Below are positions 15,052-36,344 of a stretch of DNA of 39,339 nucleotides, piece by piece. Source of the stretch: Candidatus Micrarchaeota archaeon (GTDB lineage Archaea > B1Sed10-29 > JAJRYS01); NCBI GenBank assembly GCA_964643685.1, contig CAZXTN010000001.1, positions 200,036 through 239,374 on the forward strand, in the 5' to 3' direction. Below the pieces are notes generated by a model that made no database searches, had not been told where the DNA came from, and was given only the letters and a program-made list of their open reading frames with translations. The translations under genes and the position numbers were made by a program. How positions within the stretch are numbered: position 1 is the first letter of the stretch; the number at the start of each line of letters is the position of its first letter.

Positions 15052-15651
15052 TTAACTGAGCATGTCTTTTCCAAAGTAATCTTCATAACTCATGTGCTTT
15101 TCAAGTTTTTTGAGGTTTTCTTTCAAAGTTTTTTTGTTTTTATGGTGTTTTCTAACTGGTTTTATTATTTTCAAATTCTGTGGTTTTGGAGAGTACTTTA
15201 TTGAAAGTATTGCAAAAGAATCGCCTGGCGTCTCTGTCTTGAATTCTTCAATTACTTTGAAACCCATTTGCTTGTATCTTTTGATTTTTTCTTTTGATTT
15301 TAAAGGCACTCTTATTGTAATTATCCTGTTTGATAGGATATGCGCAGCTGATTTTACAAGTTCTTTTTCAACATCTGCTCTCTTAAAGCCTTTTCTCACG
15401 CAAAGTAAGTCAATTGAACCTTCTTCTCCTTTTCTGCGCACCACTATAAAACCAATCTTTGACTTAGTTGTCTCAGCAACTAAAAAAATAGTCGGGCCTA
15501 CAATCCACTCACTTAAAGGGTATTTGTTTAAAGGATGTTTTCTCTTCTCAGAGTTGTAAATAGGATACAAGTCCTGTAAGTCATCAAAAGTAACTTCCCT
15601 CACTTTCAGCTTCAAAATGCTTCCTGGATTACCTTTCTTCTTAACAGCCAT
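15052..15651 (-). CDS. Divergent GNAT-fold protein
   Basis: VREVTFDDL, FLVAE...IGFI, IDLLCVRKGFKRADVEKELV (degenerate motif A) and YKQMGF. Confidence 0.7.
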   Translation of the reverse strand: MAVKKKGNPGSILKLKVREVTFDDLQDLYPIYNSEKRKHPLNKYPLSEWIVGPTIFLVAETTKSKIGFIVVRRKGEEGSIDLLCVRKGFKRADVEKELVKSAAHILSNRIITIRVPLKSKEKIKRYKQMGFKVIEEFKTETPGDSFAILSIKYSPKPQNLKIIKPVRKHHKNKKTLKENLKKLEKHMSYEDYFGKDMLS

Positions 15652-15668
15652 TACAGCACCTTAAACTC

Positions 15669-15965
15669 TCACTTTTCATTGTCATACTTCTGAATCCTAC
15701 GCATGACATTCTCAAAATCATGAGCCAAATCCTCACCTTTAGGCGTGAGACGAATAATCTTAATCCTACCTTGCCCCTCAGTCTCAACCAAACCCTCTTC
15801 CTCAAAAGAAGACAAAATATTAATCATATGAGGATAAGTGCAATCCACCTCCTTGCACAACATAGAAGCATACCAAACTCTGTCCTTTTTCAACAGCGAC
15901 ACCAAGGTCTTAGCCGGCTTTTTCTTTAAAAAAACACCCTCAATCACACCATCACCTATAAACAA
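15669..15965 (-). CDS. Small winged-helix (MarR-like) DNA-binding protein; start probably GTG at 15947
   Basis: YASMLCKEVDCTYPHMINILSSFEEEGLV...GRIKIIRLTPKG; AGGTGA SD-like element before the GTG. Confidence 0.82.
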   Translation of the reverse strand: MFIGDGVIEGVFLKKKPAKTLVSLLKKDRVWYASMLCKEVDCTYPHMINILSSFEEEGLVETEGQGRIKIIRLTPKGEDLAHDFENVMRRIQKYDNEK

Positions 15966-16060
15966 TAATTTATAAAAAACAAAAGCACTATTTAAACCTT
16001 ACCAAACAAAAGTATAAAATAAAAACAATAAAATAAAAACAATAAAACACCCTAGCCTTA

Positions 16061-16086
16061 TTTAAAGTATAAACAAAAAACAATAA
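16061..16086. repeat. 26-bp direct repeat, copy 2
   Basis: Identical to 12930-12955. Confidence 0.85.
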
Positions 16087-16680
16087 GAAGTAATTAATAT
16101 AACTTTTTATGTTGCGTGAGAGAGAACATTATAAAATAATTGCAAAAGAGGTTGTTGTGAAACAAGCTGAAAAAGCAAGAAAAAGGAAAAAAGTGAGAAC
16201 TGGAGGTAAAAAATAAGATATTTAGTAAAAGTGAGAGCAAATTGCAGCAAAATAAGCAAAAATAAGCAAAATGAGCAAATGTGAGGAGTTATTTTAAAAA
16301 AAATATGCAAAATAAGAGAGAATAGTTAAAAAACAAGCACAAAACAAAAGTGAGGATAAAAAAAGAAAAGATAAAAAGAGAAGGTTCTTATAAAAAGCAC
16401 TATAAGAAAAGATGAAAAGGGAGGAAAAACAGTTGAAATTAAAGTGTGAGTAAATAAATTAAAAAATAACTGCAAAACCAAGCAGGGTTAAAAAAACAAC
16501 ATAAGCAAAGCATAGAAGAATAAAAGAAAGCAATAAAAAACGCTTGAAAACCCTCTTTTTTCCTCTATTGAAAAACGCTATAAGCAAAGCAAGTTTTTAA
16601 AAAGTTATTTTAAGGTTGTTTTTTGTTTCATTGCTAATTGTTGTGTTGTTATTTTATTAAATAGCCAGGGGCCTTGGTTC

Positions 16681-16899
16681 GAGTAATAAGTTTAGAGTAA
16701 TACAGAGTAAAGAAGAGATAAAAGAGTAATAATTAACGGGTGATATAGTGTAAAAAGAGTAATTTTACGGGGTTTGTTCGGGTAAAACCCTTTAAATCTT
16801 ACTCTTTTTATAAAAATAATGAGTAATAGAGAGTAAAAACTTCACCCGTTAAATTTATATACTTTACTCGTTAGAAATAATATGAGTAATAAGGAGTAT
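16681..16899. repeat. Cluster of GAGTAA hexamers (iteron/operator-like) with nested inverted repeats
   Basis: GAGTAA on + at 16681, 16695, 16705, 16724, 16757, 16821, 16831 and 16884; TTACTC at 16799 and 16864; variants GAGATA at 16715, GGGTAA at 16780 and GAGTAT at 16894. Confidence 0.85.
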
Positions 16900-16923
16900 T
16901 CAATTTTTTGGTGATTAGGAGAT

Positions 16924-18252
16924 ATGAGCGATTTTGACAAGGAAACAAGCAAAATTGAAGAATGGCAGAGGGTGCAGGCTTGGGAAGTAAAAGATCCTTT
17001 TACACACATAACAAGTGCAGAGCTGTTTACTGGTTTTGATGACATATTGAAAAAGTTATATGTTTTCGTTGGATTGGAAAAAAATTATGGGGTTGTTTAT
17101 GGGCATTATGGTTTTGGAAAAACAACTTTGATTAAGAAAGCTGCTGCTGATTTTTCAAAAAAATATAATGTATTGCTTTTTGAAGATGCCCCTAGTATTG
17201 AGAGAATTGCTGATAATCTTAATAAGCTTGCTGATAATGGTTTTTTAAGCAAGCTTTTAAACAAGAAAATTGATGTGCATGATTATCCTTCTTTTAATAA
17301 AAAAATAAAGAAGCACACTGTGTTGATTTTTGACGAGGCTCATTCTATTCCTGAAAATGTTTTTTCGTATATCCGTAACTTGACTGAAAGCGGGAAAACT
17401 TTTTCAGTTTTGTTTGCGGGGAAGCCGGAATTAATGGATAGGGAAAACGGCTTGCCTCAGTATTTAATTGACAGGCTTGAGTTTTCAGAGGGCTTGCGTC
17501 CTCTTACTAAAAAAGAATCTCTTGAGCTTGTTAAAAAAAGAATTGAAGTTCTTGCTAAATCAAAAGCTTACTTGTTCACTGAAGATGCTCTTGTTGAAAT
17601 TGCAAAAAGAAGCAGGTTCGTGCCAAGGGATTTGCTTGAAAACTGCTCCAAGTTTCTTGAGTATGCAATTAATCAAAACAAGCATGAAGTGACTTTGAAG
17701 GATGTTAAGGAAAAGTGGAATTATGTTGCGAAAGAAGCTGGGTTGACTTCCTATACTTTTGAGAAAGAAAGAGGAAAAAGGATTAAGAAAGCTGAAGAGA
17801 AGTTGAGGAAAATTGAAGAGGAAGTGAAGGAAACTGAAGCTGAACTTGAAGAAGAGGCTTATCTTCCTGTTGACGAAGAGGAGGAGTATTGGAAAAAGCC
17901 AACTTATGAGAGGATGATGGAGGGATTGACTCCTAAACCTCATCCTGGGATTGAATATAATATAATGAAGGAGGAGTTTTTGGATGAGTTGTCTCCTCTT
18001 CAAAGGCAGATAATTAATTACTTGTTTGAAGAAGAACCTAAAACAGCTCAGGAGATTGCTAAAGCAATTGACAATTCTTATGATACAGTGCGTCACATGT
18101 TGAAAAGACTGCAGGGAAAATATAATGAACCTGAATCCAAGAAAAAAATAAAAGGAATGTATCCTCTTGTTGAAACCCGCAAGAACCCTAAAAAGAGAGG
18201 GTATATTTTCTTCCTAAGTAGCAGGACGAGGAAGGTAATGTCAAAAGATTAA
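16924..18252 (+). CDS. AAA+ ATPase (ExeA/AAA_22-like N-terminus) with coiled-coil linker and C-terminal winged helix
   Basis: Walker A GHYGFGKT, Walker B VLIFDEAH, FAG sensor region and LIDRL arginine finger. C-terminal wHTH LSPLQRQIINYL...TAQEIAKAIDNSYDTVRHMLKRL. AGGAG upstream. Confidence 0.88.
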   Translation: MSDFDKETSKIEEWQRVQAWEVKDPFTHITSAELFTGFDDILKKLYVFVGLEKNYGVVYGHYGFGKTTLIKKAAADFSKKYNVLLFEDAPSIERIADNLNKLADNGFLSKLLNKKIDVHDYPSFNKKIKKHTVLIFDEAHSIPENVFSYIRNLTESGKTFSVLFAGKPELMDRENGLPQYLIDRLEFSEGLRPLTKKESLELVKKRIEVLAKSKAYLFTEDALVEIAKRSRFVPRDLLENCSKFLEYAINQNKHEVTLKDVKEKWNYVAKEAGLTSYTFEKERGKRIKKAEEKLRKIEEEVKETEAELEEEAYLPVDEEEEYWKKPTYERMMEGLTPKPHPGIEYNIMKEEFLDELSPLQRQIINYLFEEEPKTAQEIAKAIDNSYDTVRHMLKRLQGKYNEPESKKKIKGMYPLVETRKNPKKRGYIFFLSSRTRKVMSKD

Positions 18253-18306
18253 AAGAGTAAGACAATTAAATAGGACAATTAAAGCCGTGCGGAGGTGGCT
18301 TATTAA

Positions 18307-18435
18307 ATGGATTATTTGAAATTAAGCGTGCCTGAACTTGAAAAAATAATGAATAAAATGGACACTGATTATGGAATTGAAAGAAAGAATTTTGTCAGCT
18401 TGAAAGTGGACAAAGTGCATAAAGTAGCATTTTGA
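18307..18435 (+). CDS. Small unannotated ORF, 42 aa (MDYLKLSVPELEKIMNKMDTDYGIERKNFVSLKVDKVHKVAF)
   Basis: Translated by hand. Strong SD GGAGGTG at 18291-18297 and a T-rich tract after the stop. Confidence 0.6.
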   Translation: MDYLKLSVPELEKIMNKMDTDYGIERKNFVSLKVDKVHKVAF

Positions 18436-18957: not shown

Positions 18958-19644
18958 TTGATGACTAAACTTGATAAAAATAGAGTTTTTGATGAAATTA
19001 TTGATTTTTGCAGGTTTCCTGTGCCTAAAACACCTATTGATATTGTTAGGCATTTAAAGGGATTGGATTTTGGCTTTTATCCTGGAACTCCTGACAAGCA
19101 GGTTGTTAAATTTTTAAGAACAAATTATTTAAATGAATTAGTTGATAATGGGCTTATTGTAAAGTATACTTTTGATTCTGGTTCTTGGAAAAAAGCTAGG
19201 AAGCTGCTTTCTTATTATGAATCTGGCAATAAGAAAAAGCCTACTCGTAAAGTAAGTGAATTATATCAAATTAATTTTTTAAATTTTTTTAGCAACAAGG
19301 ATTCTTTTTTGCTGAAAATACCTTCTTTTAAGGAAATTAATTTGGATTTGGTTGTTCTTCTTTATAATTCTTTTAAATCTGTTAATAAAAAAAGTTTGAG
19401 GCTTTCTAATTTTTCATTGGAATTAATTAATTTAATGATGGCTTATAGAGAAGAAAGTGTAAGGGATAAAATTAGAATCAAACTTTATAATTTGAATTTT
19501 AATGATAAGGAAATTGAATCTTTTGAAAAGCTGCTTGAATACTCTTTGTTTATGAATGATTTTTTTGAAAAAATTCCTTTTAACCCAAATGATTCAAGAG
19601 CTCTTGAATTAATTGAAAAAATAAACAAAAATATAACAAATTAA
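18958..19644 (+). CDS. Very AT-rich hypothetical protein, possible N-terminal wHTH-like region
   Basis: 228-aa ORF. PKTPIDIVRHL...YLNELVDNGLI loosely resembles an HTH. Confidence 0.55.
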   Translation: MMTKLDKNRVFDEIIDFCRFPVPKTPIDIVRHLKGLDFGFYPGTPDKQVVKFLRTNYLNELVDNGLIVKYTFDSGSWKKARKLLSYYESGNKKKPTRKVSELYQINFLNFFSNKDSFLLKIPSFKEINLDLVVLLYNSFKSVNKKSLRLSNFSLELINLMMAYREESVRDKIRIKLYNLNFNDKEIESFEKLLEYSLFMNDFFEKIPFNPNDSRALELIEKINKNITN

Positions 19645-26377: not shown

Positions 26378-27451
26378 ATGCTACGTGGCCAGTCTTCAAC
26401 AGAATACTTGTTAGTGTTAAGCATAGTGCTTGTTCTTCTTGTTCCTTTTATTTACTACGGGTACATCTCTTCACAGGAGTCAGTGAGGCTGCTTCAAGCA
26501 AGAAGAGCTGTTGAGTCATTGGCAAATGCAGCTGATTATGTTTACACTCAAGGATACGGCTCAAGAGTTACTGTGAATGTCATACTTCCAGGTGGAATAG
26601 ATTTCAATAATTCATACATAGGAAAGCCTTCGTCAGCAGGAACAGAAGTGCCTTCAGAAGAAATCAATTTACGCCTCTATACTCAATCAGGGTTCACTGA
26701 TGTTTTCAAAAGCACAGGAGAAGAGGTAAGAGGAAGGTGGCTTAATAGGTCCGGCCCTTATTTTTTCACTGTATACATGGCTGAAGATGGCTATGTCTTA
26801 ATAGTTCCATATGAACTTGAATTTTTAATAAACCAAACTTATTTTACTTACAACATTAAAACAGGACATGTTCAAAACTTTGCTTTTAACATAACAAGCT
26901 TAGTTGGATACACTAATCAAATCAATTTCACAAAAACAGGAGACATCTCCTCTTGGATAAACCTTTCAGCTGACTCAATAAACTTGTCTTCATTATCTTC
27001 ACAGGAGATAACAGGAACAATAACAGTTCCAACAGGAGCAACACTAGGCCTGCATACAGGTAAAATCACAGCAGACTCAGGCAATTCCTCGCAAGACATT
27101 TACATAGAAGTCACTGTCTACTCAGGAAACCAAGGATGCAACTCCACTCATTCAATAATAACCTTCTACCACAATTCATCATATTCAACCTATGACGAGG
27201 CATTTGAAAAAGAAGATACTGTGACAATAAGCACGACAGGATGGAACCCAAATTCAGATGTGACAATTGACTTGCAGAATTCAACAGGAAACTCCTTAAC
27301 AGGATACCCAACAACAGCAACAACAGATTCAAGTGGAGAATACTTGTTTACATGGAGCCCGGTTCAACAAACACCCGACAATTACACAGTTTATTTCAAT
27401 GACTCCACAACAAGAATAAACCAATCATTTGAGGTAATTGCATGCAGTTAA
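26378..27451 (+). CDS. Class III signal peptide protein (minor pilin with Ig-like domains)
   Basis: RG|QSSTEYLLVL (Q at +1, E at +5), LANAADYVYTQGYGS, and C-terminal beta domains. Confidence 0.85.
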   Translation: MLRGQSSTEYLLVLSIVLVLLVPFIYYGYISSQESVRLLQARRAVESLANAADYVYTQGYGSRVTVNVILPGGIDFNNSYIGKPSSAGTEVPSEEINLRLYTQSGFTDVFKSTGEEVRGRWLNRSGPYFFTVYMAEDGYVLIVPYELEFLINQTYFTYNIKTGHVQNFAFNITSLVGYTNQINFTKTGDISSWINLSADSINLSSLSSQEITGTITVPTGATLGLHTGKITADSGNSSQDIYIEVTVYSGNQGCNSTHSIITFYHNSSYSTYDEAFEKEDTVTISTTGWNPNSDVTIDLQNSTGNSLTGYPTTATTDSSGEYLFTWSPVQQTPDNYTVYFNDSTTRINQSFEVIACS

Positions 27452-29481
27452 AAAAAGCATTGATTTTCACAGCAATTTTAATTGTATTGGTTTCAACAGC
27501 GAAAGCAGTTACAGCAACCAACACTCCCTCAACTGCTTACAAAGACGACGGCACAAATGTCCTAATAGAAGTAAGCACAAGCGATGACAACAGAGCTTCT
27601 TTAGCTGTAAGTGGTTTAAGCACACCTCATTACATTGAATCAAACTGGACCAGCTTTTCAATACCCTCACAAGCAACAATAACCTCAGCAATATACTCCT
27701 ATGAACACTATGAATCCTCTACTACAAGAGAGGATGTTACAATAGAAATATGGGATGGTTCAGCATGGGTTCAAGTATGCGATACAACTGAAACAACCTC
27801 TGAAACAACAGACACCTGCGACTTATCCTCTTATATTACAACCCCTTCAGAAGCATCAAACATAGCAATAAGATACAAAGATTCAAAAATTGGAGGAGGG
27901 AATTTCATTTTATCCTATTACACTTATCTTGATTATGAAAAAATAGACATAACTTATGTTATAAACACGCCCCCTACTCAAGATAACCCTGTTCTTAACT
28001 CTACATATGGTACGAACAAGTCAAATGAAAACATAACTTGTTACAATCAAAGCACTTATGATGCAGACGGCGATGACGTGAAAAACATCTACAACTTCTA
28101 CAAAAACGGCTCTTCAATAACTCTCCTTAACATGCCATTTGAAGGAAGCTCAACAAAACTACTTGATTACTCCTCCTACGGAAACAACGCGACAGAAGAG
28201 CAGTCAGCGACATGGCAAAGCACAGGAGGATATGATGGAAAAGGAGCTTATGAATTTTCAACAAGTTATGCTGCAAGTTACATCAAAGTACCTAACTCAA
28301 CTTCCTTAGTGATAAGAAACACAGGGTATACTTTAATGGCTTGGATTTACCCCACAAGCTTTGGTGAAACTAATTACGGAAGAATAATTACAAAAGGAGA
28401 TGATGGAACTTCACAGGGGTTAATATTCTATTTGAACAACTACACAGGGCAACAATCAATGAGGGTATACCACACTCAAGGGGCATCTTATTCCTTTGCA
28501 GATGCAACTAATAACGCAATAACTTTAAACCAATGGCAGCTTGTAGCAGTTACTTTCAAGAACAATACAATCCACTTTTATGTGAATGGAAACGACGTCA
28601 CTTTAAATTCAACAATAGGGAACATGACAGAAGACACCACAAACCCTCTTTATATTGGAGATGAAGCAGACGGTTCAAGAACCTTTGATGGAAAAATAGA
28701 TGAAGTATTGATTTTCAACGATTCTTTAACACAAGAACAAATAAAAGCAATATACAACGGAGAAGTTAACAAAATTGTTTCCCAGGAAATTTCAGCAGGT
28801 GATGAATGGTACTGTTGTATAACCCCAAACGACAATATTGAAAACGGAGAAACCAAATGCAGCAACACTCTTTCAATAAATCAAGAACCAACTGCAACAA
28901 TAACAAAAACAACATACTACAATTGCAATCCAATCATGTACTATGAAGTGAAATTTTATGACAACTCAGAAAACCTTGTGCCTGAAGAATCAACTTTCAC
29001 AATACACGACCCAACAGGCACTCAGAAAAATTCAACAACTTCTTCAACTTCAACAGGAATTTACAGGGGCAGTTTCTATTTATTCGGCTCTTATCAATTG
29101 GGGCAATGGATTTTAAAATCAACAACAGATTGCTACAGAGACCAAGCAAACTTTACAGTGACCCAGCACTTGAATTCAGAAGTAATGAAAATAAACATTT
29201 TCACAACACCTGACAAAATCATTTACTCGCAAGGAGAGACAATAACAACAGAGTTTCAAGTTATTGATGCAAACGGAGAAGGGCTTCCTGGGTTATCTTC
29301 AAATATAATAGCTAATGTAAGTGGAACAAGCTTAACTCTAACAGATGAAGGAGACGGGAGGTACTCTTCAACAATCGACACTTCAACACTATCTCCAAAC
29401 AATTTTTATGTCATACAAGTCTCGGCAAAGAATTCAACTGCAACAATAGTCAACTCAAAATCCTTTTACTTAAAAGCATGA
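27442..29481 (+). CDS. Secreted LamG/concanavalin-like domain adhesin
   Basis: Signal peptide. LamG pattern DYSSYGNN, TLMAWIYP, NQWQLVAVT, FYVNG and FDGKIDEVLIFN; many sequons. Confidence 0.88.
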   Translation: MQLKKALIFTAILIVLVSTAKAVTATNTPSTAYKDDGTNVLIEVSTSDDNRASLAVSGLSTPHYIESNWTSFSIPSQATITSAIYSYEHYESSTTREDVTIEIWDGSAWVQVCDTTETTSETTDTCDLSSYITTPSEASNIAIRYKDSKIGGGNFILSYYTYLDYEKIDITYVINTPPTQDNPVLNSTYGTNKSNENITCYNQSTYDADGDDVKNIYNFYKNGSSITLLNMPFEGSSTKLLDYSSYGNNATEEQSATWQSTGGYDGKGAYEFSTSYAASYIKVPNSTSLVIRNTGYTLMAWIYPTSFGETNYGRIITKGDDGTSQGLIFYLNNYTGQQSMRVYHTQGASYSFADATNNAITLNQWQLVAVTFKNNTIHFYVNGNDVTLNSTIGNMTEDTTNPLYIGDEADGSRTFDGKIDEVLIFNDSLTQEQIKAIYNGEVNKIVSQEISAGDEWYCCITPNDNIENGETKCSNTLSINQEPTATITKTTYYNCNPIMYYEVKFYDNSENLVPEESTFTIHDPTGTQKNSTTSSTSTGIYRGSFYLFGSYQLGQWILKSTTDCYRDQANFTVTQHLNSEVMKINIFTTPDKIIYSQGETITTEFQVIDANGEGLPGLSSNIIANVSGTSLTLTDEGDGRYSSTIDTSTLSPNNFYVIQVSAKNSTATIVNSKSFYLKA

Positions 29482-29496
29482 AAAGAGAGTGAATGA

Positions 29497-29940
29497 ATGA
29501 ACTTCAAAACTTCAAAAAAAACAAGAGCACAAGCATCTTTTGAATTCATGCAAACATTTACTCTCCTATTCGCAGTTGTCGTCATCTTTTCAGCTATTTT
29601 TTTAAATTACTACATTGACTTGCAAAACAAGAGCATTCAATTCCAACTAACTAACTTCGCTGAATCAATAGCAGGCAAAATCAACTCAGCTTACCTGGCA
29701 GGCGACGGATACTCTGTAAACTTCTACCTCCCTCAGAAACTTTACTCAGAAAACTATTTCATAAACCTCTCAGCTTCAAACAAGTACCTGGAAGTTCATT
29801 TAAACGACTCTGATTATGAAAACTACGGCTCAGCCTCCTTGCTAACTTCAAATATTCAATTAATCCAATGGAATGAAAACCAAACAATAGAAAACATTAA
29901 TGGAAAAATAGTGATAAAACCAACAAATTTGACAAATTAA
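29497..29940 (+). CDS. Minor pilin (class III signal peptide)
   Basis: RA|QASFEFM plus a hydrophobic helix; INSAYLAGDGY. Confidence 0.85.
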   Translation: MNFKTSKKTRAQASFEFMQTFTLLFAVVVIFSAIFLNYYIDLQNKSIQFQLTNFAESIAGKINSAYLAGDGYSVNFYLPQKLYSENYFINLSASNKYLEVHLNDSDYENYGSASLLTSNIQLIQWNENQTIENINGKIVIKPTNLTN

Positions 29941-29950
29941 AGGTCTTAAT

Positions 29951-30421
29951 ATGCATATAAACAGGAATAAAAAAAGGAAAGGACAATTGTTTTCAGCTGA
30001 CGCCATAATGGCAATTTCCTTATTCATACTTATTTTGTCAGCTGTAATGCTTGCGAACTCCTCTGTTTCAAACAAGATAAACAAGTCAGTTATTTACAGG
30101 GTAATGGAGCAAAAAGCAGAATTCATAGAAGACTACCTTATGAAAAATTTTTCAAAAACAGGGGCTTTTGATGAAGAAAAAGTAACAAGCTTTTTTTCAA
30201 AAAACTATTCAGAAGTAAATGACGACTTTGACATAGGTTTTAATTATTCAATTGAAATTACTTACGCAAACTCGAACCAAGTTTTTTCACTAAACGGCCT
30301 TGCCCTTTCCATAAAACGGTTTCAGGAAACAAGACCAAATTTTTTAATAACAGCTGAAAGAACAGGATTTTTAAAAGGAGAAGATGTCAAGCTAGTTACA
30401 AAGGTGTATTATTATGAATGA
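29951..30421 (+). CDS. Pilin-like protein (class III signal peptide)
   Basis: KKRKG|QLFSADAIMAISLFILIL. Confidence 0.8.
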   Translation: MHINRNKKRKGQLFSADAIMAISLFILILSAVMLANSSVSNKINKSVIYRVMEQKAEFIEDYLMKNFSKTGAFDEEKVTSFFSKNYSEVNDDFDIGFNYSIEITYANSNQVFSLNGLALSIKRFQETRPNFLITAERTGFLKGEDVKLVTKVYYYE

Positions 30422-30872
30422 AAATTTTACAAGAAAAGGATTTATTTTTTCCTATGACGCAGTTGTTTCATTAATGTTTGTTGTCTTCTTCCTTTCATTT
30501 CTCACTTACTACGTCAACTCTTTTTCATACAGTTCAATGAAAGATTATGAAACAATAAGAAGCATGGATTCAGTTTTGAATACAATGATTGCAGATGGAT
30601 CAATGTCATCTGCTTTACATCAGGAAATTCAAGGGAACACAGCTGAAGCACAGCAATTACTTAAGCAGAAAATAAGCACGCTTCTAGGCAAAAAATTCAA
30701 AGCAAAAATAACTATTTACGCCTACGATTCTTCAGGAAACGTTGTTTACAAAATAGAATCAGCTTACCCTTCCTACGCACGTGCTTCTAAAAATAGAAAA
30801 GCTTACTCAGTTAACAGCTTTTTTTCAGCAGAGGGATATTATGGAATTGCAAGTCTTCAAACATGGAGCTAA
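30414..30872 (+). CDS. Pilin-like protein (class III signal peptide)
   Basis: RKG|FIFSYDAVVSLMFVVFFL. Confidence 0.8.
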   Translation: MNENFTRKGFIFSYDAVVSLMFVVFFLSFLTYYVNSFSYSSMKDYETIRSMDSVLNTMIADGSMSSALHQEIQGNTAEAQQLLKQKISTLLGKKFKAKITIYAYDSSGNVVYKIESAYPSYARASKNRKAYSVNSFFSAEGYYGIASLQTWS

Positions 30873-31902
30873 AGGGTTCATCTTCACGCTTTTAACTTCA
30901 GTGATTTTGCTAGTTTTACTTAGCTTGCTTTTTGTATACTCTCAAGCCCACTCTTCCTCCTCACTCAACTACCTACCTGCTCAGCAAATTTCATCGCTAG
31001 CAAATCAAATTTCAACAGCACAAATGACAAAAAATCAACTCAATTACACTACAAATTCAACAAATTACTTTGTTTCAGAATACTTCTTCCAAGGAAAAAA
31101 AACACAACTTGATTCAAACAAAATTTATCTATCAGAAATTCTGAACAAGCTCTCTGAAAAAACAAATACAATAATGAACTTGTCATCCATTGACTACTCT
31201 GACTTCCACTTGTTTTCAGAAAACTTTAACTATTTCTGGAATTACTCTTCAGACAACCTGGCAATCAACGGCTCTTACTCTTCACTTCTGTTCTTTTTCA
31301 GCGATTCCCCTTCGCTTGTTTCAGATAATTGCACTTCAACAGGTGGCACAGTGAACATTATCATTAATGACATCTTCAACAAAACGCCACAAGGAAACTG
31401 CTTCATAAAACTTAATTTTACAGGAGAAGAACTTCTCATTAATTACTCAGAACCTGAAATGAACTTCTCTTTTTCAAACATTACAAGCGCTTACTTTAAT
31501 GTTTCAGCAACTGTCTCTGCAACAAGCCCTCTTCAAATAGGAGAACAGCCAAAATTATTTACAACTTACTCTGTTTCAAACCCAGGATGGACTGAACCAT
31601 CTTACCCTTCAAATACTGCGCAGGAAAAGCATTACTTCACAGTCTCTCTTTACTCAAATGACTATAACGTAATTTTAATCGACTCAAATTCAACAGGGAC
31701 ATACGATTATGCATACATAGATGAAGACACTGACTTCACAGATGGAAACTCAATTGAATTAGCAGGAAACAATTCCAAACTCTTTTTAAACAGCAATGTG
31801 TTCTTATTAAACATAAAACCAACAGGCACTCAACTAAAATTTACAAAACTAAACGCAATCCACATTGAAAAGAAGCAATATAAATTAAACAAGGCGCTGT
31901 AA
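30841..31902 (+). CDS. Pilin-like protein with large extracellular domain; ORF extends to 30781
   Basis: In-frame ATG at 30841; AKG|FIFTLLTSVILLVLL; S/N/T-rich body. Confidence 0.7.
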   Translation: MELQVFKHGAKGFIFTLLTSVILLVLLSLLFVYSQAHSSSSLNYLPAQQISSLANQISTAQMTKNQLNYTTNSTNYFVSEYFFQGKKTQLDSNKIYLSEILNKLSEKTNTIMNLSSIDYSDFHLFSENFNYFWNYSSDNLAINGSYSSLLFFFSDSPSLVSDNCTSTGGTVNIIINDIFNKTPQGNCFIKLNFTGEELLINYSEPEMNFSFSNITSAYFNVSATVSATSPLQIGEQPKLFTTYSVSNPGWTEPSYPSNTAQEKHYFTVSLYSNDYNVILIDSNSTGTYDYAYIDEDTDFTDGNSIELAGNNSKLFLNSNVFLLNIKPTGTQLKFTKLNAIHIEKKQYKLNKAL

Positions 31903-31903
31903 A

Positions 31904-32893
31904 ATGAAAATAGTAAGCGATGCTGACAAAATTTACTACTACGTGCAAGAGCACAAAAAAGCCACTTTCAAAGAACTATCTGAAAAACTAGAGTTAGGCG
32001 ACGAAGATAAAATAGAGCAGCTTGCAGTTATCCTAGACAAAGCAAAACTGCTCAAATTAGTATATCCAACAAACCCCTTCTTAGAACCTTACTTGACACT
32101 GCCAACAAGCTTACACCCCCCAAGCAAAGTTAAAAACACAACTATCCAAACTAAACAGAAAATTAAGAAGAAAAAAATAATCTTCCCAAACCCCTTTTCA
32201 ACAAACAAAGAATTGCAAAAAGAAAAAAAGTACTTGAACCATCTTCAAGAAGAAGCAGCGCAAGGAATCTTAAAACTTAAAAAATTAGATGAAAAAAACC
32301 AGGAGCTTTCAACAGAACTAAAACAACAAGAACAAAAAACTACGCAACTTAAGTCTCAACTTGAAGAAATCAACAAGCAAGAGAATCAACAGAAAAAACA
32401 AGTTTCAAAAGCAGAGCAACTTCTTGCAAAAGAAGACAAAAAAAGCAAGGAGAACAAAGATAAAATCAAAAAATTTGAAAAAATGCTCAAGTCAAACCTG
32501 TCACCAGCCAAGAAAAAACAAGTTAAAAAATGGCTGTCTTCAAGAAAAAAACAACAGAAGAAAATTGACTCTCATCTGAAAAAACTTTCAACTGAAAAAA
32601 CCAAGCAAGAAAAAAAGCTTCATCTTATCCTGAAAAAAAAGAAGCAAATTGAACAGAAACTAAAAGAATTAAACCAAGAATTAGCTTCATTAACTCTGCA
32701 GGCAAAAAAGACAAAAAAAGAACTTGATTCAATCAATCTTAAACTGCATGCCATTAACAAAGAAATGGACATTGTTCTTGAAAAAAAACAAGAATTAAGC
32801 AAGAAACTCAAAGATGAAATTTTAAAAGTTCTTTCAACTTCCTTCCTTCTCTTGCTTGCTTTTATCCTTGCTTTTTACCTTCTTACAACTTAA
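31904..32893 (+). CDS. wHTH-like N-domain, long coiled coil and C-terminal TM protein
   Basis: DKIYYYVQEHKKATFKELSEKL...IEQLAVILDKAKLLKLVYP; K/Q/E heptads; TM helix FLLLLAFILAFYLL. Confidence 0.7.
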   Translation: MKIVSDADKIYYYVQEHKKATFKELSEKLELGDEDKIEQLAVILDKAKLLKLVYPTNPFLEPYLTLPTSLHPPSKVKNTTIQTKQKIKKKKIIFPNPFSTNKELQKEKKYLNHLQEEAAQGILKLKKLDEKNQELSTELKQQEQKTTQLKSQLEEINKQENQQKKQVSKAEQLLAKEDKKSKENKDKIKKFEKMLKSNLSPAKKKQVKKWLSSRKKQQKKIDSHLKKLSTEKTKQEKKLHLILKKKKQIEQKLKELNQELASLTLQAKKTKKELDSINLKLHAINKEMDIVLEKKQELSKKLKDEILKVLSTSFLLLLAFILAFYLLTT

Positions 32894-32916
32894 TCAATTC
32901 ACAGGAGTAATGTTTT

Positions 32917-34410
32917 ATGAGAATATTAGAAGAATACGAAGTTAATGCAAACGGCTTGAAGGCAGTCATTTCAATTTTAGAAGACAAAGACTTCGTGCCT
33001 AATTACAGAATCAAAATCCCTTCAATTGGACCTGGAACTGAAAAACTTCTAGAACAAGTTAAAGTTGAACTTATCAAGTCAACAAAACTTCAGGCAAAAG
33101 ACATTCTTGACCCACGCATAGCTGAAAGCATAAAAAAAGAATTTACAAAAAAAGCATCTTCTCTCATCAACTCTTACTTCCCAAAATTCACTTCACTGCA
33201 AAAACAAACCCTAGTTGGCATCATTGTCAACGACATGGTTGGGCTTGGAAAAATTGAAATACCCTTAAGTGATGAAGCACTTGAAGAAATAGTAATCAAC
33301 GGCTCTAAAGAACCATTATGGGTTTATCACAAGAGATACGGCTGGGTTAAAACAGACTTGTTCATTGAAAGCGAAGAAAAAGTACTAGACTACGCTAACT
33401 TGATTGGAAGAAGAGTAGGAAGACAAATTAACATACTAGATCCTTTAATGGACGCTCACTTGACAACAGGAGACAGGGTCAATGCAACCTTGTTTCCAAT
33501 TTCAACACAAGGAAACACAATCACTATAAGAAAGTTTGCAAGAAAACCATGGACAATCACTGACTTTATCAAGCTTGGAACCTTGAACGAAGAAGTAGCT
33601 TCCTTAATTTGGATGGCTATTCAATACGAACTTAACGTGCTTGTTGCAGGTGGAACAGGCTCAGGTAAAACATCAACCCTTAACAGCATACTTCCTTTTA
33701 TCCAACCGAACCAGAGGATAATTTCAATTGAAGACACGAGGGAACTTTCACTTCCAAAATACCAGCACTGGGTTCCATTGACAACAAGAGAACCTAATCC
33801 AGAAGGAAAAGGAGAAGTTTCAATGCTTGACTTAATGGTCAACTCACTTAGAATGCGTCCAGACAGGATAGTAGTAGGGGAAATCAGGAGACAAAGAGAA
33901 GCAGAAGTCTTGTTTGAAGCAATGCACACAGGGCACTCAGTTTACTCAACACTACACGCTGACAGAGCAGAGCAAGTCAGAAGAAGACTGACAACACCCC
34001 CTATCAACGTGTCAGAATCACTGCTGGAATCACTTCACCTCGTGCTTGTCCAATACAGGCACAGAAGGCTTGGAATAAGAAGAACGCTTGAAGTAGCGGA
34101 AGTCGTGCCTGTTGGTGAAAAATCAGGAAAATCAAGTGTAGACATGAGGGTTCTTTACAAATGGAAGCCAAGAGAAGACAAAATCGTTAAAGAAAAAGAC
34201 CCAATAAGGTTCAATGCAGAGCTTGAATCATTAACAGGCTTGACTTCAAGAGAAGTGAAAGAAGACCTTGAAGAAAAACAAAAAATACTCAGGTGGATGA
34301 CTGAAAAAAACATGAACGATGTTCACTTAATAGGTAAACTTATTGCTACTTACTACAAAAACAAGGAAGACATACTTTCAATGGCTAAAAAAGGAGAAGA
34401 TTATGCATAA
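32917..34410 (+). CDS. Type IV pilus/secretion assembly ATPase (CpaF/TadA/VirB11 family)
   Basis: LEEIVING, TIRKF, Walker A GGTGSGKT, SIEDTREL, LRMRPDRIVVGEIR and His box AMHTGH...TLHA. Confidence 0.96.
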   Translation: MRILEEYEVNANGLKAVISILEDKDFVPNYRIKIPSIGPGTEKLLEQVKVELIKSTKLQAKDILDPRIAESIKKEFTKKASSLINSYFPKFTSLQKQTLVGIIVNDMVGLGKIEIPLSDEALEEIVINGSKEPLWVYHKRYGWVKTDLFIESEEKVLDYANLIGRRVGRQINILDPLMDAHLTTGDRVNATLFPISTQGNTITIRKFARKPWTITDFIKLGTLNEEVASLIWMAIQYELNVLVAGGTGSGKTSTLNSILPFIQPNQRIISIEDTRELSLPKYQHWVPLTTREPNPEGKGEVSMLDLMVNSLRMRPDRIVVGEIRRQREAEVLFEAMHTGHSVYSTLHADRAEQVRRRLTTPPINVSESLLESLHLVLVQYRHRRLGIRRTLEVAEVVPVGEKSGKSSVDMRVLYKWKPREDKIVKEKDPIRFNAELESLTGLTSREVKEDLEEKQKILRWMTEKNMNDVHLIGKLIATYYKNKEDILSMAKKGEDYA

Positions 34411-35305
34411 AAAACAATTCAATCCTCCGTTCATTCCAATGAACCTAAGAAACGCAAAAAGATTCAGCAAATTCTTAACGCCAATTGGAAGAAACTTGTC
34501 AAGAATAAAACCTTCCTTGGACTCTGAACTTGTTCAACTTGAAATAAACGCGACGCCAACACAATACATGTCAATGGCAGCACTCGCTTTCCTCTTAACT
34601 TTCATTGAAATGTTTCTATTTCTAATGATTGTGCTTGTCTTAATCTTTGAATCAAAAGCAACTGATTTCCTTCTTCTTGTATTTATTTCTTCAACAATAA
34701 TGGCTTTCTTCATATTCATGCAATTCTCTTTTTATCCACAGAACCTTCTTCAATTGAAAGCAAAAAAACTAAACCGCGACTTATTATTTGCTTTAAGGCA
34801 CTTGCTTGTTCAAGTGCGTTCAGGAGTGCCTTTATACAATGCAATGGTTTCCCTGAGCCAAGCTGACTACGGCATTGTTTCAGAAGAATTTAAACAAACA
34901 GCAAAAGAAATAAGCAGAGGAGTTTCCCAAACAGAAGCACTCAGCAACATGGTAATGAGAACACCCTCAGTTTACTTAAGGAGGGTCGTGTGGCAGATAT
35001 CAAACGCGTTAAGAGCAGGCTCTGACTTGTCACAAGTTATAGAATCACTTGTAAAACAATTTTCAGAAGAAGAAAAAGTCAGGCTAAGGAGATTTGGAAA
35101 AGAATTATCTCCATGGGCTTTAATGTACTTGATGTTCACAGTGATTTTTCCAACAATGGGAATAGCAATGCTGTTAATCCTAACTTCACTTGCACCTATA
35201 ACAATTACGAATGAAATGTTTGCTTTATTCATAGTCTTCTTTTCATCATTTCAATTCTTCTTCATCAAATTCCTTAAAAACAAGAGGCCGTCAGTGAGGT
35301 TCTAA
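34403..35305 (+). CDS. Type II secretion F-domain (TadB/TadC-like) membrane platform protein
   Basis: LLFALRHLLVQVRSGVPL, YGIVSEEF and QISNALRAG. AGGAGA precedes the ATG at 34403. Confidence 0.9.
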   Translation: MHKKQFNPPFIPMNLRNAKRFSKFLTPIGRNLSRIKPSLDSELVQLEINATPTQYMSMAALAFLLTFIEMFLFLMIVLVLIFESKATDFLLLVFISSTIMAFFIFMQFSFYPQNLLQLKAKKLNRDLLFALRHLLVQVRSGVPLYNAMVSLSQADYGIVSEEFKQTAKEISRGVSQTEALSNMVMRTPSVYLRRVVWQISNALRAGSDLSQVIESLVKQFSEEEKVRLRRFGKELSPWALMYLMFTVIFPTMGIAMLLILTSLAPITITNEMFALFIVFFSSFQFFFIKFLKNKRPSVRF

Positions 35306-35321
35306 AAAAAGGTGATACAAC

Positions 35322-36344
35322 TTGAAACTTAACGAACGTTTTTACATAACTTTTTCAAAAGCGCTTCCAAAATCATTTATTGAAAAAATAGCAAAATACG
35401 AGCAATACTCAAACATTAAAATAAACCCAGAAGTATGGGCAGGATTCTCACTGTTCTTCAGCTTGCTCCTAGCAACTTTAACACTCCTAGTAATAGAAAC
35501 AATGATGCCTTCTCTCCTGTTAATTTTCTACCCTTCAATTTTCATAGCTTCAGCAGGGTTGTTTTTCCTAGGATTCTACTTCTTCTTAATTTACTCAAGC
35601 AAACAAAGAACAAAAGAAATTGAAAAAAACCTGCCTGACGCTCTTCAATTAATTTCAGCTAACATAAAAGCAGGACTAACACCTGACAAAGCACTTTTCC
35701 TCTCAGCTCGCCCTGAATTCGGAGTGCTAAGCGAAGAAATAATGTTCATAGGAGAAGAAACAATAGCAGGAAAACCAGTTGACGAAGCACTCATTGATTT
35801 TTCAAAAAGAGTTGACTCAGAAGTCCTGAAAAGAACAGTGGATTTAATTGTGGAGGGAATGAATGCAGGTGGAGAATTAGCCAGCTTGCTTGAAAAAACA
35901 GCTGACGACATTAAAATGAGCGAAATAATGCAGGAAGAAATCCAAGCAAACATAGGCGCTTACGTAGTCTTTTTAATGATGGCAATTTTACTAGCTTCCC
36001 CCTTGCTTTACGCAGTTTCAATAAACTTCGTTGGCTTCAGCGTAAGCATAAAACAAAACATTAACGTAGGACAATTCACTTCAGAAGCACCTATAGGATC
36101 AATGAGTGGTTTTCCAACTCTTTCAACAGGAAACTCAGTTGACTTAAACGTGCTTAAATGGTTCTCTTTAATAAACCTGACAATATCAGCTATATTCGGA
36201 GCAATAGTCGTAGGAGTCCTAAGATATGGTGAAGAAACAGAAGGAGTCAGAAGCATTCCATTCTTCTTACTAATATCACTTGCTTTCTTTTTCCTTTCAA
36301 TGCACTTCTTATCAAGCTTCTTATCTAACATAATTACCTTTTAG
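35322..36344 (+). CDS. Type II secretion F-domain (TadC-like) membrane platform protein
   Basis: IEKNLPDALQLISANIKAGLTP, RPEFGVL and GGELASLL. AAGGTGA precedes the TTG. Confidence 0.92.
   Translation: MKLNERFYITFSKALPKSFIEKIAKYEQYSNIKINPEVWAGFSLFFSLLLATLTLLVIETMMPSLLLIFYPSIFIASAGLFFLGFYFFLIYSSKQRTKEIEKNLPDALQLISANIKAGLTPDKALFLSARPEFGVLSEEIMFIGEETIAGKPVDEALIDFSKRVDSEVLKRTVDLIVEGMNAGGELASLLEKTADDIKMSEIMQEEIQANIGAYVVFLMMAILLASPLLYAVSINFVGFSVSIKQNINVGQFTSEAPIGSMSGFPTLSTGNSVDLNVLKWFSLINLTISAIFGAIVVGVLRYGEETEGVRSIPFFLLISLAFFFLSMHFLSSFLSNIITF

Follow-up and report, generated by a model that had tools for sequence, protein, structure and literature searches.

The 39,339-nucleotide stretch of a Candidatus Micrarchaeota genome analysed here (the window; G000:C1:200036-239374 in a 91.75% complete assembly of 695 kb, 12 contigs and 36% GC) carries a 958-base pair (bp) non-coding gap between two divergent genes, one for a small winged helix-turn-helix (wHTH) protein, wHTH-A, and the other for an AAA+ ATPase with a C-terminal winged helix. 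Directly 5' of the ATPase gene the gap holds a dense array of short GAGTAA boxes. A second and more widely conserved repeat system, AAAAGTGAGAG (GTGAG repeats in the following), lies between this array and wHTH-A, to which it is tied; it was absent from the initial annotation of this DNA. The features are compiled in Table 1. Genomes are designated by G numbers (G000 for that of the window), contigs and loci by C and L numbers.

Table 1. Features of the locus between wHTH-A and the 228-aa gene (window coordinates; aa, amino acids; ORF, open reading frame)
Feature	Position	Strand	Remarks
wHTH-A, 98 aa, MarR-like winged helix	15669..15965	-	single copy; weak HTH_27/DUF6293_C hits
AT-rich tract	15966..16115	.	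GC 0.19; from wHTH-A start to first GTGAG repeat
Six one-way (A)AAAGTGAG(A/G)G repeats	16116..16453	+	starts 16116, 16193, 16231, 16281, 16350, 16446
Degenerate G-run + TTC-N-GTA element (GGGGCCTTGGTTCGAGTAAT)	16668..16688	+	runs into first box
Box array	16681..16899	+	10 exact GAGTAA (8 on +, 2 on -) plus variants; consensus ~(C/A)G(A/G)GTA(A/T); exact starts 16681, 16695, 16705, 16724, 16757, 16799(-), 16821, 16831, 16864(-), 16884
Perfect 11-bp inverted repeat TTAACGGGTGA / TCACCCGTTAA	16733..16852		flanks array centre; sole two copies in window
TATA-like TTTATATA	16854..16861	+	62 bp 5' of ATPase ATG; read from sequence
ATPase, 442 aa	16924..18252	+	AAA+ core and lid (~50-270), low-confidence acidic linker, C-terminal winged helix (~350-440)
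42-aa ORF	18307..18435	+	directly after ATPase; no family found
PRC-barrel protein, 77 aa	18526..18759	+	PF05239 1.8e-5; homologue in G010 abuts GTGAG region
228-aa protein	18958..19644	+	no family hit; homologues in G007, G010; similar ORF in G009 by eye only

The gap (15966-16923, GC 0.264) was found to be the largest in the window, AT-rich and flanked by the two wHTH-bearing genes, as the initial annotation had described it. Among the gaps of at least 350 bp in the genome only two exceeded it in length, one at the edge of a contig and the other GC-rich and next to the 16S gene; its GC was the lowest of the 25 longest gaps, and no AT-rich non-coding stretch of the assembly is longer. On the plus strand of the gap no ORF of 40 aa or more was present, and the five minus-strand ORFs of 42-67 aa are mechanical, low-complexity calls. 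A known RNA gene in the gap was considered and not supported, neither Rfam families at gathering thresholds nor tRNAs being detected in the window. A scan for sigma-70 promoters and terminators gave the same result as its shuffles, with models ill-suited to an archaeon, and an exact 9-mer repeat scan of the genome returned mostly low-complexity A-rich words.

The initial annotation had reported ten exact copies of GAGTAA or its complement TTACTC just upstream of the ATPase gene, and these were confirmed within 209 bp (16681-16889). The window as a whole contains 45 copies against 19.2 +/- 4.2 expected, a number reached in none of 100 shuffles. The genome-wide count that had been proposed as a check gave 519 copies over the 695,104 bp, or 0.75 per kb, and in a scan of the whole genome the array was the sole place with at least four copies within 250 bp; the Poisson probability of ten or more copies in 209 bp is ~2e-15. 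The phasing of about 10 bp and the variants named earlier were also present, with 10-bp steps at 16695/16705, 16821/16831 and 16884/16894 and variant boxes GAGATA at 16715, GTGTAA at 16747 and GAGTAT at 16894. Relatives of the CGGGT type occur at 16737, 16779 and 16844(-), and a 22-nucleotide imperfect inverted pair related to the 11-bp inverted repeat was detected as well. Outside the array exact copies were found at 16448 and 18255. The latter, to which the initial annotation had drawn attention owing to its position right after the ATPase stop codon, is not conserved in G004, G001 and G007 and is probably due to chance. Parts of the array (16032-16768 and 16709-17183, for example) were recovered letter for letter in contigs from three other public runs, and the array is therefore not an assembly artefact. 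In one low-depth contig of run X2, position 16832 reads G instead of A, which turns the box at 16831 into GGGTAA; this word is an alternative box type in relatives.

By sequence, the ATPase is a member of AAA_22 (PF13401; E value 7e-10, 39.8 bits against a cut-off of 27, residues 53-172), and residues 353-397 matched HTH_24 and Sigma70_r4. Its best family match in four libraries was phrog_296, a Mu B-like 'DNA transposition protein' (2.4e-19). Against TIGR03015, which describes ExeA-type proteins associated with XrtA/PEP-CTERM, it scored 45.8 bits (5e-12) at a cut-off of 324.5 and is thus not a member of that family. The likeness to ExeA and AAA_22 that had been proposed for this protein held at the level of sequence; the predicted fold, however, ranked Cdc6/Orc1 first. 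With the AlphaFold model (predicted local distance difference test, pLDDT, 82; acidic linker disordered), VIA-align placed Cdc6/Orc1 structures at ranks 1 to 4 (Z 18.4, 17.1, 16.8 and 16.4; 305-321 residues aligned across 16-442), with root mean square deviations (rmsd) of 11-17 A that are high owing to differing domain orientations. Filament structures of TnsC (Z 16.1) and MuB (Z 15.5) came next and generic AAA+ proteins scored ~13-14. Foldseek returned RuvB, ORC, RFC and proteasome ATPases unranked, all at 1e-8 to 1e-7, and a search of solved structures with the ATPase sequence gave a best E value of 5e-4. The model hence combines an AAA+ core, a lid and a C-terminal winged helix in a fold nearest to solved Orc1/Cdc6, and in this predicted fold the protein resembles an Orc1/Cdc6-type DNA-binding ATPase, yet by sequence it stands outside the Orc1/Cdc6 family. 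Walker A (K66/T67), Walker B (D137/E138) and two arginines (R184, R235) are invariant across 17 homologous sequences; the protein therefore probably hydrolyses ATP. The gene is single copy in the genome. Close homologues are few: 16 were found among 5.8 billion clusters, the source naming 'Candidatus Micrarchaeota' for the closest, and a 1.84-billion-protein library gave 9 representatives at E <=1e-30 and 1,156 at <=1e-10.

The closest sequence families of the ATPase are MuB, TnsC, TniB and ExeA, and the likeness to TnsC and MuB suggests, by analogy, that the present protein polymerises on double-stranded DNA in an ATP-dependent manner. Members of these families show no sequence preference in DNA binding and act with transposases or secretins, whereas the ATPase has a predicted sequence-reading winged helix of its own, an adjacent site array and no transposase nearby. 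The Mu B-like match could be taken to mean that the module is left over from an integrated plasmid, virus or transposon, of which it would be the replication or transposition-target-selection part. A drop of GC to 0.25-0.29 at 18.0-20.5 kb of the window would agree with such a descent, as would the view that archaeal secondary origins derive from captured extrachromosomal elements (PMC4010727, in excerpt). The region is nevertheless chromosomal, collinear over ~70 kb between two families with its position and neighbours kept, and its gene order is preserved across the order. No tyrosine recombinase or integrase (PF00589) was found in the 91.75% complete G000 with a search that was positive in all 14 reference genomes used as control, and no transposase or terminal repeats were seen. 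The genes around the ATPase matched no known defence or phage family in PADLOC and PHROGs; the only PADLOC matches, at E >=4e-5, fell on winged-helix or P-loop parts and establish no membership in a defence system. We consider a mobile origin of the module barely credible.

Orthologues of the ATPase with 47-57% identity were found in G004, G001, G002 and G007, all of them with a divergent small winged-helix gene, a spacer of 600-1100 bp and a box array directly 5' of the ATPase gene. The box reads CGAGTAA in G004 (7 exact copies), CGAGTA(A/T) in G001, CGGGTA/CGAGTA in G002 and CGTGTA(A/T) in G007 (8 copies). In G009 and G013 a collinear ATPase with AAA_22 and winged-helix domains and 24% identity (E 2e-6 over 343 residues; AAA_22 at 49.1 bits in G009) occupies the equivalent position and is preceded by 23-24 TAGTCA/TGACTA boxes. 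Thirteen such boxes are present in G011, and in G035 and G019 TTCACGTGAAC and TGACTAG repeats stand before the genes of more distant homologues. The check on orthologues suggested by the initial annotation thus came out in its favour: long intergenic region and dense array are kept 5' of the ATPase, and the box varies with the protein lineage. The phasing generalises too. In eight arrays from 8 genomes the boxes mostly share one orientation, facing the ATPase gene, and 51 of 80 spacings between same-strand neighbours measure 9-13 bp, with another 13 at 19-23 bp. Since the box changes with the lineage of the protein and both are missing together in G010, the boxes are most likely the binding array of the neighbouring ATPase. 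We infer that the winged helix reads the box, and because the boxes are mostly one-way and about one helical turn apart, many copies would be lined up on one face of the DNA.

Direct repeats spaced by ~10-12 bp and overlapping the promoter of their operon are also the arrangement of ParR-parC, which the array resembles; the arrays, moreover, are unique and present in one copy. A role as a centromere-like or chromosome-organising site, in which the coated phased repeats would position or pair chromosomes with the ATPase as motor or organiser, is nonetheless quite improbable: the partition NTPases known to us are of the ParA, ParM or TubZ type, the present ATPase is an AAA_22-type AAA+ protein, and the module is missing in G010.

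The wHTH-A half of the locus is distributed more widely. The wHTH-A gene was present in 12 of 18 genomes of the order (8/8 high-quality ones) and in 22 of 31 of the class (11/11 high-quality). Its model (pLDDT 87) matched AF1382 best (Z 13.3, rmsd 1.6 over 84 residues), followed by MarR, HxlR and PadR proteins, the best 50 matches listed being MarR-, HxlR-, ArsR- and PadR-like; as modelled, wHTH-A is a generic MarR-like winged helix. GTGAG repeats were found 5' of wHTH-A in 21/21 loci, with 3-13 copies on one strand and 0-3 on the other, and in 19 of these the first copy lies 141-197 bp from the wHTH-A start codon; wHTH-A is the putative binder of these sites. Same-strand clusters of at least five GTGAG per 400 bp occur only twice in the G000 genome, once in the gap. 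The second cluster (15399-15736, minus strand) consists of five GTGAG inside the GNAT and wHTH-A genes; 11 relatives lack it.

Two further elements accompany the repeats. In 21/21 genomes the first 150 bp have a lower GC than the next 450 bp (0.12-0.33 vs 0.28-0.56), and the AT-rich tract of G000 ranks 51 of 27,737 sampled 150-bp windows, several of the better-ranked ones containing N runs; the tract would be the likely promoter site of wHTH-A and a candidate unwinding element. The G-run/TTC-N-GTA pattern matched at C1:216703 and C1:216804, both in the gap, and two checked matches elsewhere in the genome sit inside ORFs. A clearer version, with at least four G or C followed by CACTTCC-N-GTATTC, was recognised by eye in G010, G011, G018, G001, G004, G002, G014 and G020. 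Judged from these comparisons, the landmark appears to consist of the wHTH-A gene, the AT-rich tract, the one-way AAAAGTGAGAG repeats and the G-run element, to be class-wide and to be older than the ATPase-box pair.

The position of the locus was then assessed by strand composition. Raw GC skew is dominated by gene orientation, with a coding-strand skew of +0.085 to +0.21. Therefore the expected coding-strand skew of each gene was subtracted and the residual accumulated with all loci oriented alike; a switch was scored as left minus right in 15-kb arms within 3 kb of the locus. The residual skew reached its maximum at 3.0, 4.0, -1.8 and 2.3 kb from the locus in G000, G007, G010 and G023, respectively. 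The switch at the locus ranked 1st of 218 in G007, 1st of 204 in G010, 1st of 139 in G023 and 1st of 25 in G022, and fell in the top 2.9% of 210 in G000, so that the locus lies at the top nucleotide-disparity extreme in 4 of 7 testable contigs. Genes on the plus and minus strands and third codon positions all exhibited the switch; AT skew did not. Because the corrected switch is seen in both gene strands and at third codon positions, the locus is likely a replication landmark. Skew minima were also considered as origins. The minimum at G000:C1 66-76 kb contains gaps without a repeat array and maps to G010:C2 150-178 kb, where no skew minimum is found, and the minimum of G010:C1 adjoins the rRNA operon, whose composition may create it.

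A purely transcriptional explanation would take the boxes as an oversized operator for the ATPase and the small downstream genes, and the GTGAG repeats as operators of wHTH-A, with no role in replication. The TATA-like element is the putative promoter of the ATPase gene, and the boxes at 16864(-), 16884 and 16894 fall between it and the start codon; A-T-rich TATA-like words stand at the equivalent position in G004, G001, G007, G009 and G013, and the ATPase may repress its own gene. That the boxes overlap and follow the TATA-like element agrees with an operator, and so do the palindromic box pairs beside the promoter in G009, G013, G001 and G004 and the presence, by eye, of just 2-4 palindromic sites (TTACGTAA or TGACGTCA type) before the gene in lineages with a winged-helix-only protein. 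However, 12-24 phased sites together with 3-13 GTGAG repeats over 300-700 bp far exceed the needs of a repressor, large arrays are costly in genomes of 0.6-1.3 Mb that are ~90% coding, and the skew switch in 5 of 7 contigs would be left unexplained. Regulation of transcription as the sole function is thus unlikely.

Our preferred, though tentative, reading is that the landmark is a chromosomal replication origin region and that the ATPase binds it as a factor specific to certain lineages, in the role of a second initiator or of a regulator. Excerpts of PMC4164010 describe archaeal oriC regions by an AT-rich unwinding element, conserved repeats and a replication-protein gene, and in archaeal replicator-initiator pairs the initiator gene is adjacent and repeats and initiators co-vary (PMC4010727, in excerpt). 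At the present locus an AT-rich element (GC 0.264 over the gap, 0.19 in the tract) is flanked by two repeat families next to the gene of an Orc-like ATPase. This replicator-initiator architecture and the AT-rich tract favour an origin, as do the precedent of Sulfolobus oriC3 and the vicinity of replication genes. The canonical orc1 gene is 28-40 kb from the locus in G000, G004 and G007 (in G000 28 kb, on the left), and its own upstream spacer has only ~100 bp and no repeats; the genes for PolD DP1/DP2 are 35-40 kb and a GAN/RecJ-like gene 7 kb from the locus.

In the mechanism that we propose, the C-terminal winged helices of the ATPase would dock on GAGTAA boxes one helical turn apart along one face of the DNA, and the ATP-bound AAA+ modules, held on flexible tethers of ~70 residues, could oligomerise as MuB, TnsC and Orc relatives do. 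The resulting large nucleoprotein complex would repress the ATPase gene by occluding its TATA-like element (16854) together with the boxes at 16864-16899, and it might assist in the opening or regulation of the AT-rich, GTGAG-marked region next to it or else form a roadblock. For the GTGAG sites wHTH-A would be the natural candidate, and for the G-run element the canonical Orc1/Cdc6, which would act in trans from 28 kb away.

Several observations weigh against an origin and against the ATPase as its initiator. In the genome-wide search with the Orc1/Cdc6 model TIGR02928, orc1 (C1:187554-188657, 380.6 bits) and four weak places were found, none of them the ATPase, and Cdc6_C was not among the 18 Pfam hits of the protein. 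Alignment of the ATPase family with the genomes' own Orc1 by hhalign (probability 80.6%, E 1.3e-5) was restricted to the AAA+/lid part. Of the 18 genomes of the order, no more than 5 gave a strong match to the close ATPase family. Opposite wHTH-A, across the spacer, 8 of 12 order-level loci have an ATPase; a coiled-coil/winged-helix protein replaces it, by eye, in G006, G008, G014 and all nine class-level loci, beginning with the same LSP(L/R)-type winged helix and having short palindromic sites of its own (by eye). In G010, a near-complete genome on 2 contigs (569 kb), nothing stands there: neither ATPase type, nor the 42-aa ORF, nor a box array was found, and what is kept are the GTGAG repeats and, side by side, the genes for wHTH-A, the PRC-barrel protein and the 228-aa protein. 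Absent from G010 and replaced by a winged-helix-only protein in other lineages, the ATPase is not essential for replication and cannot be a general initiator. The ATPase-box pair rather appears, from these comparisons, to be a fast-evolving, dispensable and exchangeable add-on to the class-wide landmark. The initiator/iteron pair put forward in the initial annotation is accordingly upheld in the pairing of protein and repeat and in the skew switch at the locus, and fails in so far as a general initiator was meant.

The arrays themselves add to these points. As had been noted, the repeats are not like origin recognition boxes (ORBs): a pattern scan of the gap found neither TCCA-N(2-8)-GAAAC nor TTCC-N3-GGAA, and clusters of ORB-like patterns were not encountered anywhere in the genome scan. 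Instead of an ORB consensus inverted around the AT-rich element there is only the single G-run/TTC-N-GTA element, and box and GTGAG arrays are one-way. The switch was unremarkable in two of the seven testable contigs, G006 (22%) and G019 (27%), and the related genomes are kin and as such no independent tests.

The skew check that had been proposed for the locus gave a switch at this position, with a polarity that can be read in two ways: a maximum indicates a terminus under the bacterial and Pyrococcus convention, which speaks against an origin, and haloarchaeal origins lie at GC-skew maxima, with a C-rich leading strand (PMC1868953, in excerpt). Gene orientation, too, argues against the origin. 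On the long flank 458 of 658 genes are directed towards the locus (G000 144/82, G007 141/68, G010 173/50), among them the RpoA' and L3 operons 86-105 kb away, and in G023 both flanks lean weakly towards it (33/27 and 63/46). In Thermococcales most core clusters are co-directional with replication forks (PMC4640148).

These observations are what one would expect of a replication terminus or polar fork barrier, in which wHTH-A on the one-way AAAAGTGAGAG repeats and the ATPase on its boxes would act as roadblocks that set the meeting point of the forks, in the manner of Tus-Ter or RTP-Ter, and the terminator gene would be self-repressed through a site in its promoter. The sharp maximum of the corrected cumulative skew is the signature of a terminus if the leading strand is G-rich, both arrays are strongly one-way, and wHTH-A has such sites just 5' of its own gene, as Tus and RTP are autoregulated via a ter site in their own promoters (PMC10331603, in excerpt). 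The Xer/dif system may be missing from G000, in which no Xer-type recombinase was found, and a dif-based terminus is unlikely there. On the other hand, the short flank on the ATPase side faces away from the locus (59 of 78 genes), and gene-orientation bias gave no calibration of the skew polarity: across six genomes its correlation with the strand effect was r = -0.04, 0.05, -0.28, 0.83, 0.07 and -1.0 (the last from 4 windows), which gives no consistent sign. A fork trap needs two opposed sets of sites, whereas a single orientation is found across the 21 loci; a cluster of opposed CTCAC words, considered as the second half of a trap, is present in G000 only. An AT-rich tract and an Orc-like neighbour are unexpected at a terminus, as is the vicinity of orc1, PolD and GAN. 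The fold of wHTH-A is generic, RTP not being among its 50 best matches listed, and termination in Sulfolobus has been reported as stochastic collision of forks and not as arrest at fixed barriers. We regard a fork barrier as somewhat less likely than the origin, which is retained as the preferred reading.

Compared with known systems, the locus shares with Orc1/Cdc6-ORB pairs an AAA+-lid-winged-helix gene beside a long AT-rich, repeat-rich spacer, the co-variation of repeat and protein, the skew extreme and the fold. It differs in its boxes, which are 6-7 bp long, one-way and ~10-12 bp apart, whereas ORBs are dyads of 13-36 bp of the TCCA...GAAAC type in inverted pairs, and in an ATPase that is outside TIGR02928 and dispensable within the order. 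Sulfolobus oriC3 with WhiP resembles it as an archaeal origin without ORB or mini-ORB and with a neighbouring non-Orc1 winged-helix initiator (PMC4010727, in excerpt); unlike the ATPase, WhiP is Cdt1-related and has no AAA+ domain, and no homology was seen. The layout of DnaA and its boxes is similar in the AAA+ protein with a C-terminal DNA-binding domain, the many short boxes 5' of its own gene, the AT-rich tract and the self-repression, which is proposed for the ATPase. Kinship is limited to the AAA+ fold (Z 13.6-13.7 for the DnaA AAA+ domain against the ATPase model), the ATPase has a winged helix in place of domain IV, and the host is an archaeon with Orc1 and MCM. Tus-Ter and RTP-Ter resemble the locus in polar, here putative, protein-binding sites located where the skew peaks, in a small DNA-binding protein encoded next to those sites and in a site in its promoter (PMC10331603, in excerpt); they differ in that no kinship appears among the 50 best fold matches of wHTH-A listed and that opposed site groups are absent here.

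The kind of system, a protein with an iteron-like array at a replication landmark, is thus known; new are the ATPase family, the box grammar, the class-wide GTGAG element and a possible role as terminus. Among the titles and abstracts listed in the literature searches, none described a mapped replication origin or terminus for Micrarchaeota. To our knowledge none has been mapped in any DPANN archaeon. The locus is a conserved and testable candidate landmark, a single-copy non-coding region across the class with two separable protein/repeat systems. As an origin it would feature an Orc-like, non-Orc1 factor with DnaA-style phased boxes beside the canonical Orc1. Should the less probable terminus be true, wHTH-A on AAAAGTGAGAG, in some lineages with an ATPase polymer as added roadblock, would form the first sequence-specific fork barrier of archaea, where none has been described, and a third independent invention of the Tus-Ter/RTP-Ter principle. 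In either case the ATPase-box pairs offer a natural series of matched specificities (GAGTAA, CGTGTAA, TTAGTCA) for the co-evolution of winged helix and site.

The surrounding genes encode housekeeping proteins of archaea (NucS, D-tyrosyl-tRNA deacylase type 2, DHH-CID RecJ/GAN-like, TFE, aTrm56). The 42-aa ORF and the ribosome-binding-like CCGTGCGGAGG preceding it are kept in G004 and G001, with CTTGCGGAGG in G007, and this ORF may encode a small partner protein; the PRC-barrel and 228-aa genes may count among the conserved core genes here. To the left, G000:C1:177369-188717 comprises the small and large PolD subunits, SepF and orc1, a replication and division neighbourhood collinear with G007. 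To the right, a type IV pilus or archaellum-like set (T2SSE ATPase, two T2SSF, a laminin-G protein and small ORFs) at 26378-36344 of the window has an unusually C-rich coding strand.

Other repeats were observed in lineages with the winged-helix-only protein. In G008 (L038) its gene contains TCGAC/TCGAT-rich words and has them on both sides, and TTTAGGCACTACA is present four times in G006 (L043) and twice in G014 (L042); TCTTACACTACA was found three times in G011. In G019 (L058), G020 (L053) and G022 (L052) the last AAAAGTGAG repeats extend, by eye, into the 5' part of the coiled-coil/winged-helix ORF and are in frame with it (Lys-Ser-Glu), and the repeats may there be partly transcribed or translated. 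Elsewhere in G000, three units of ~120 bp at C6:36369-36618, each ending in GGTGAAACTCCCGGCCACGGCC and with GC-rich hairpin-like stretches, might be tandem small RNA genes. Finally, three tRNA-3'-end-like AAATCCCTTCCCTTGCAC within 200 bp at C1:110400-110600 are possibly scars of tRNA-gene integration.

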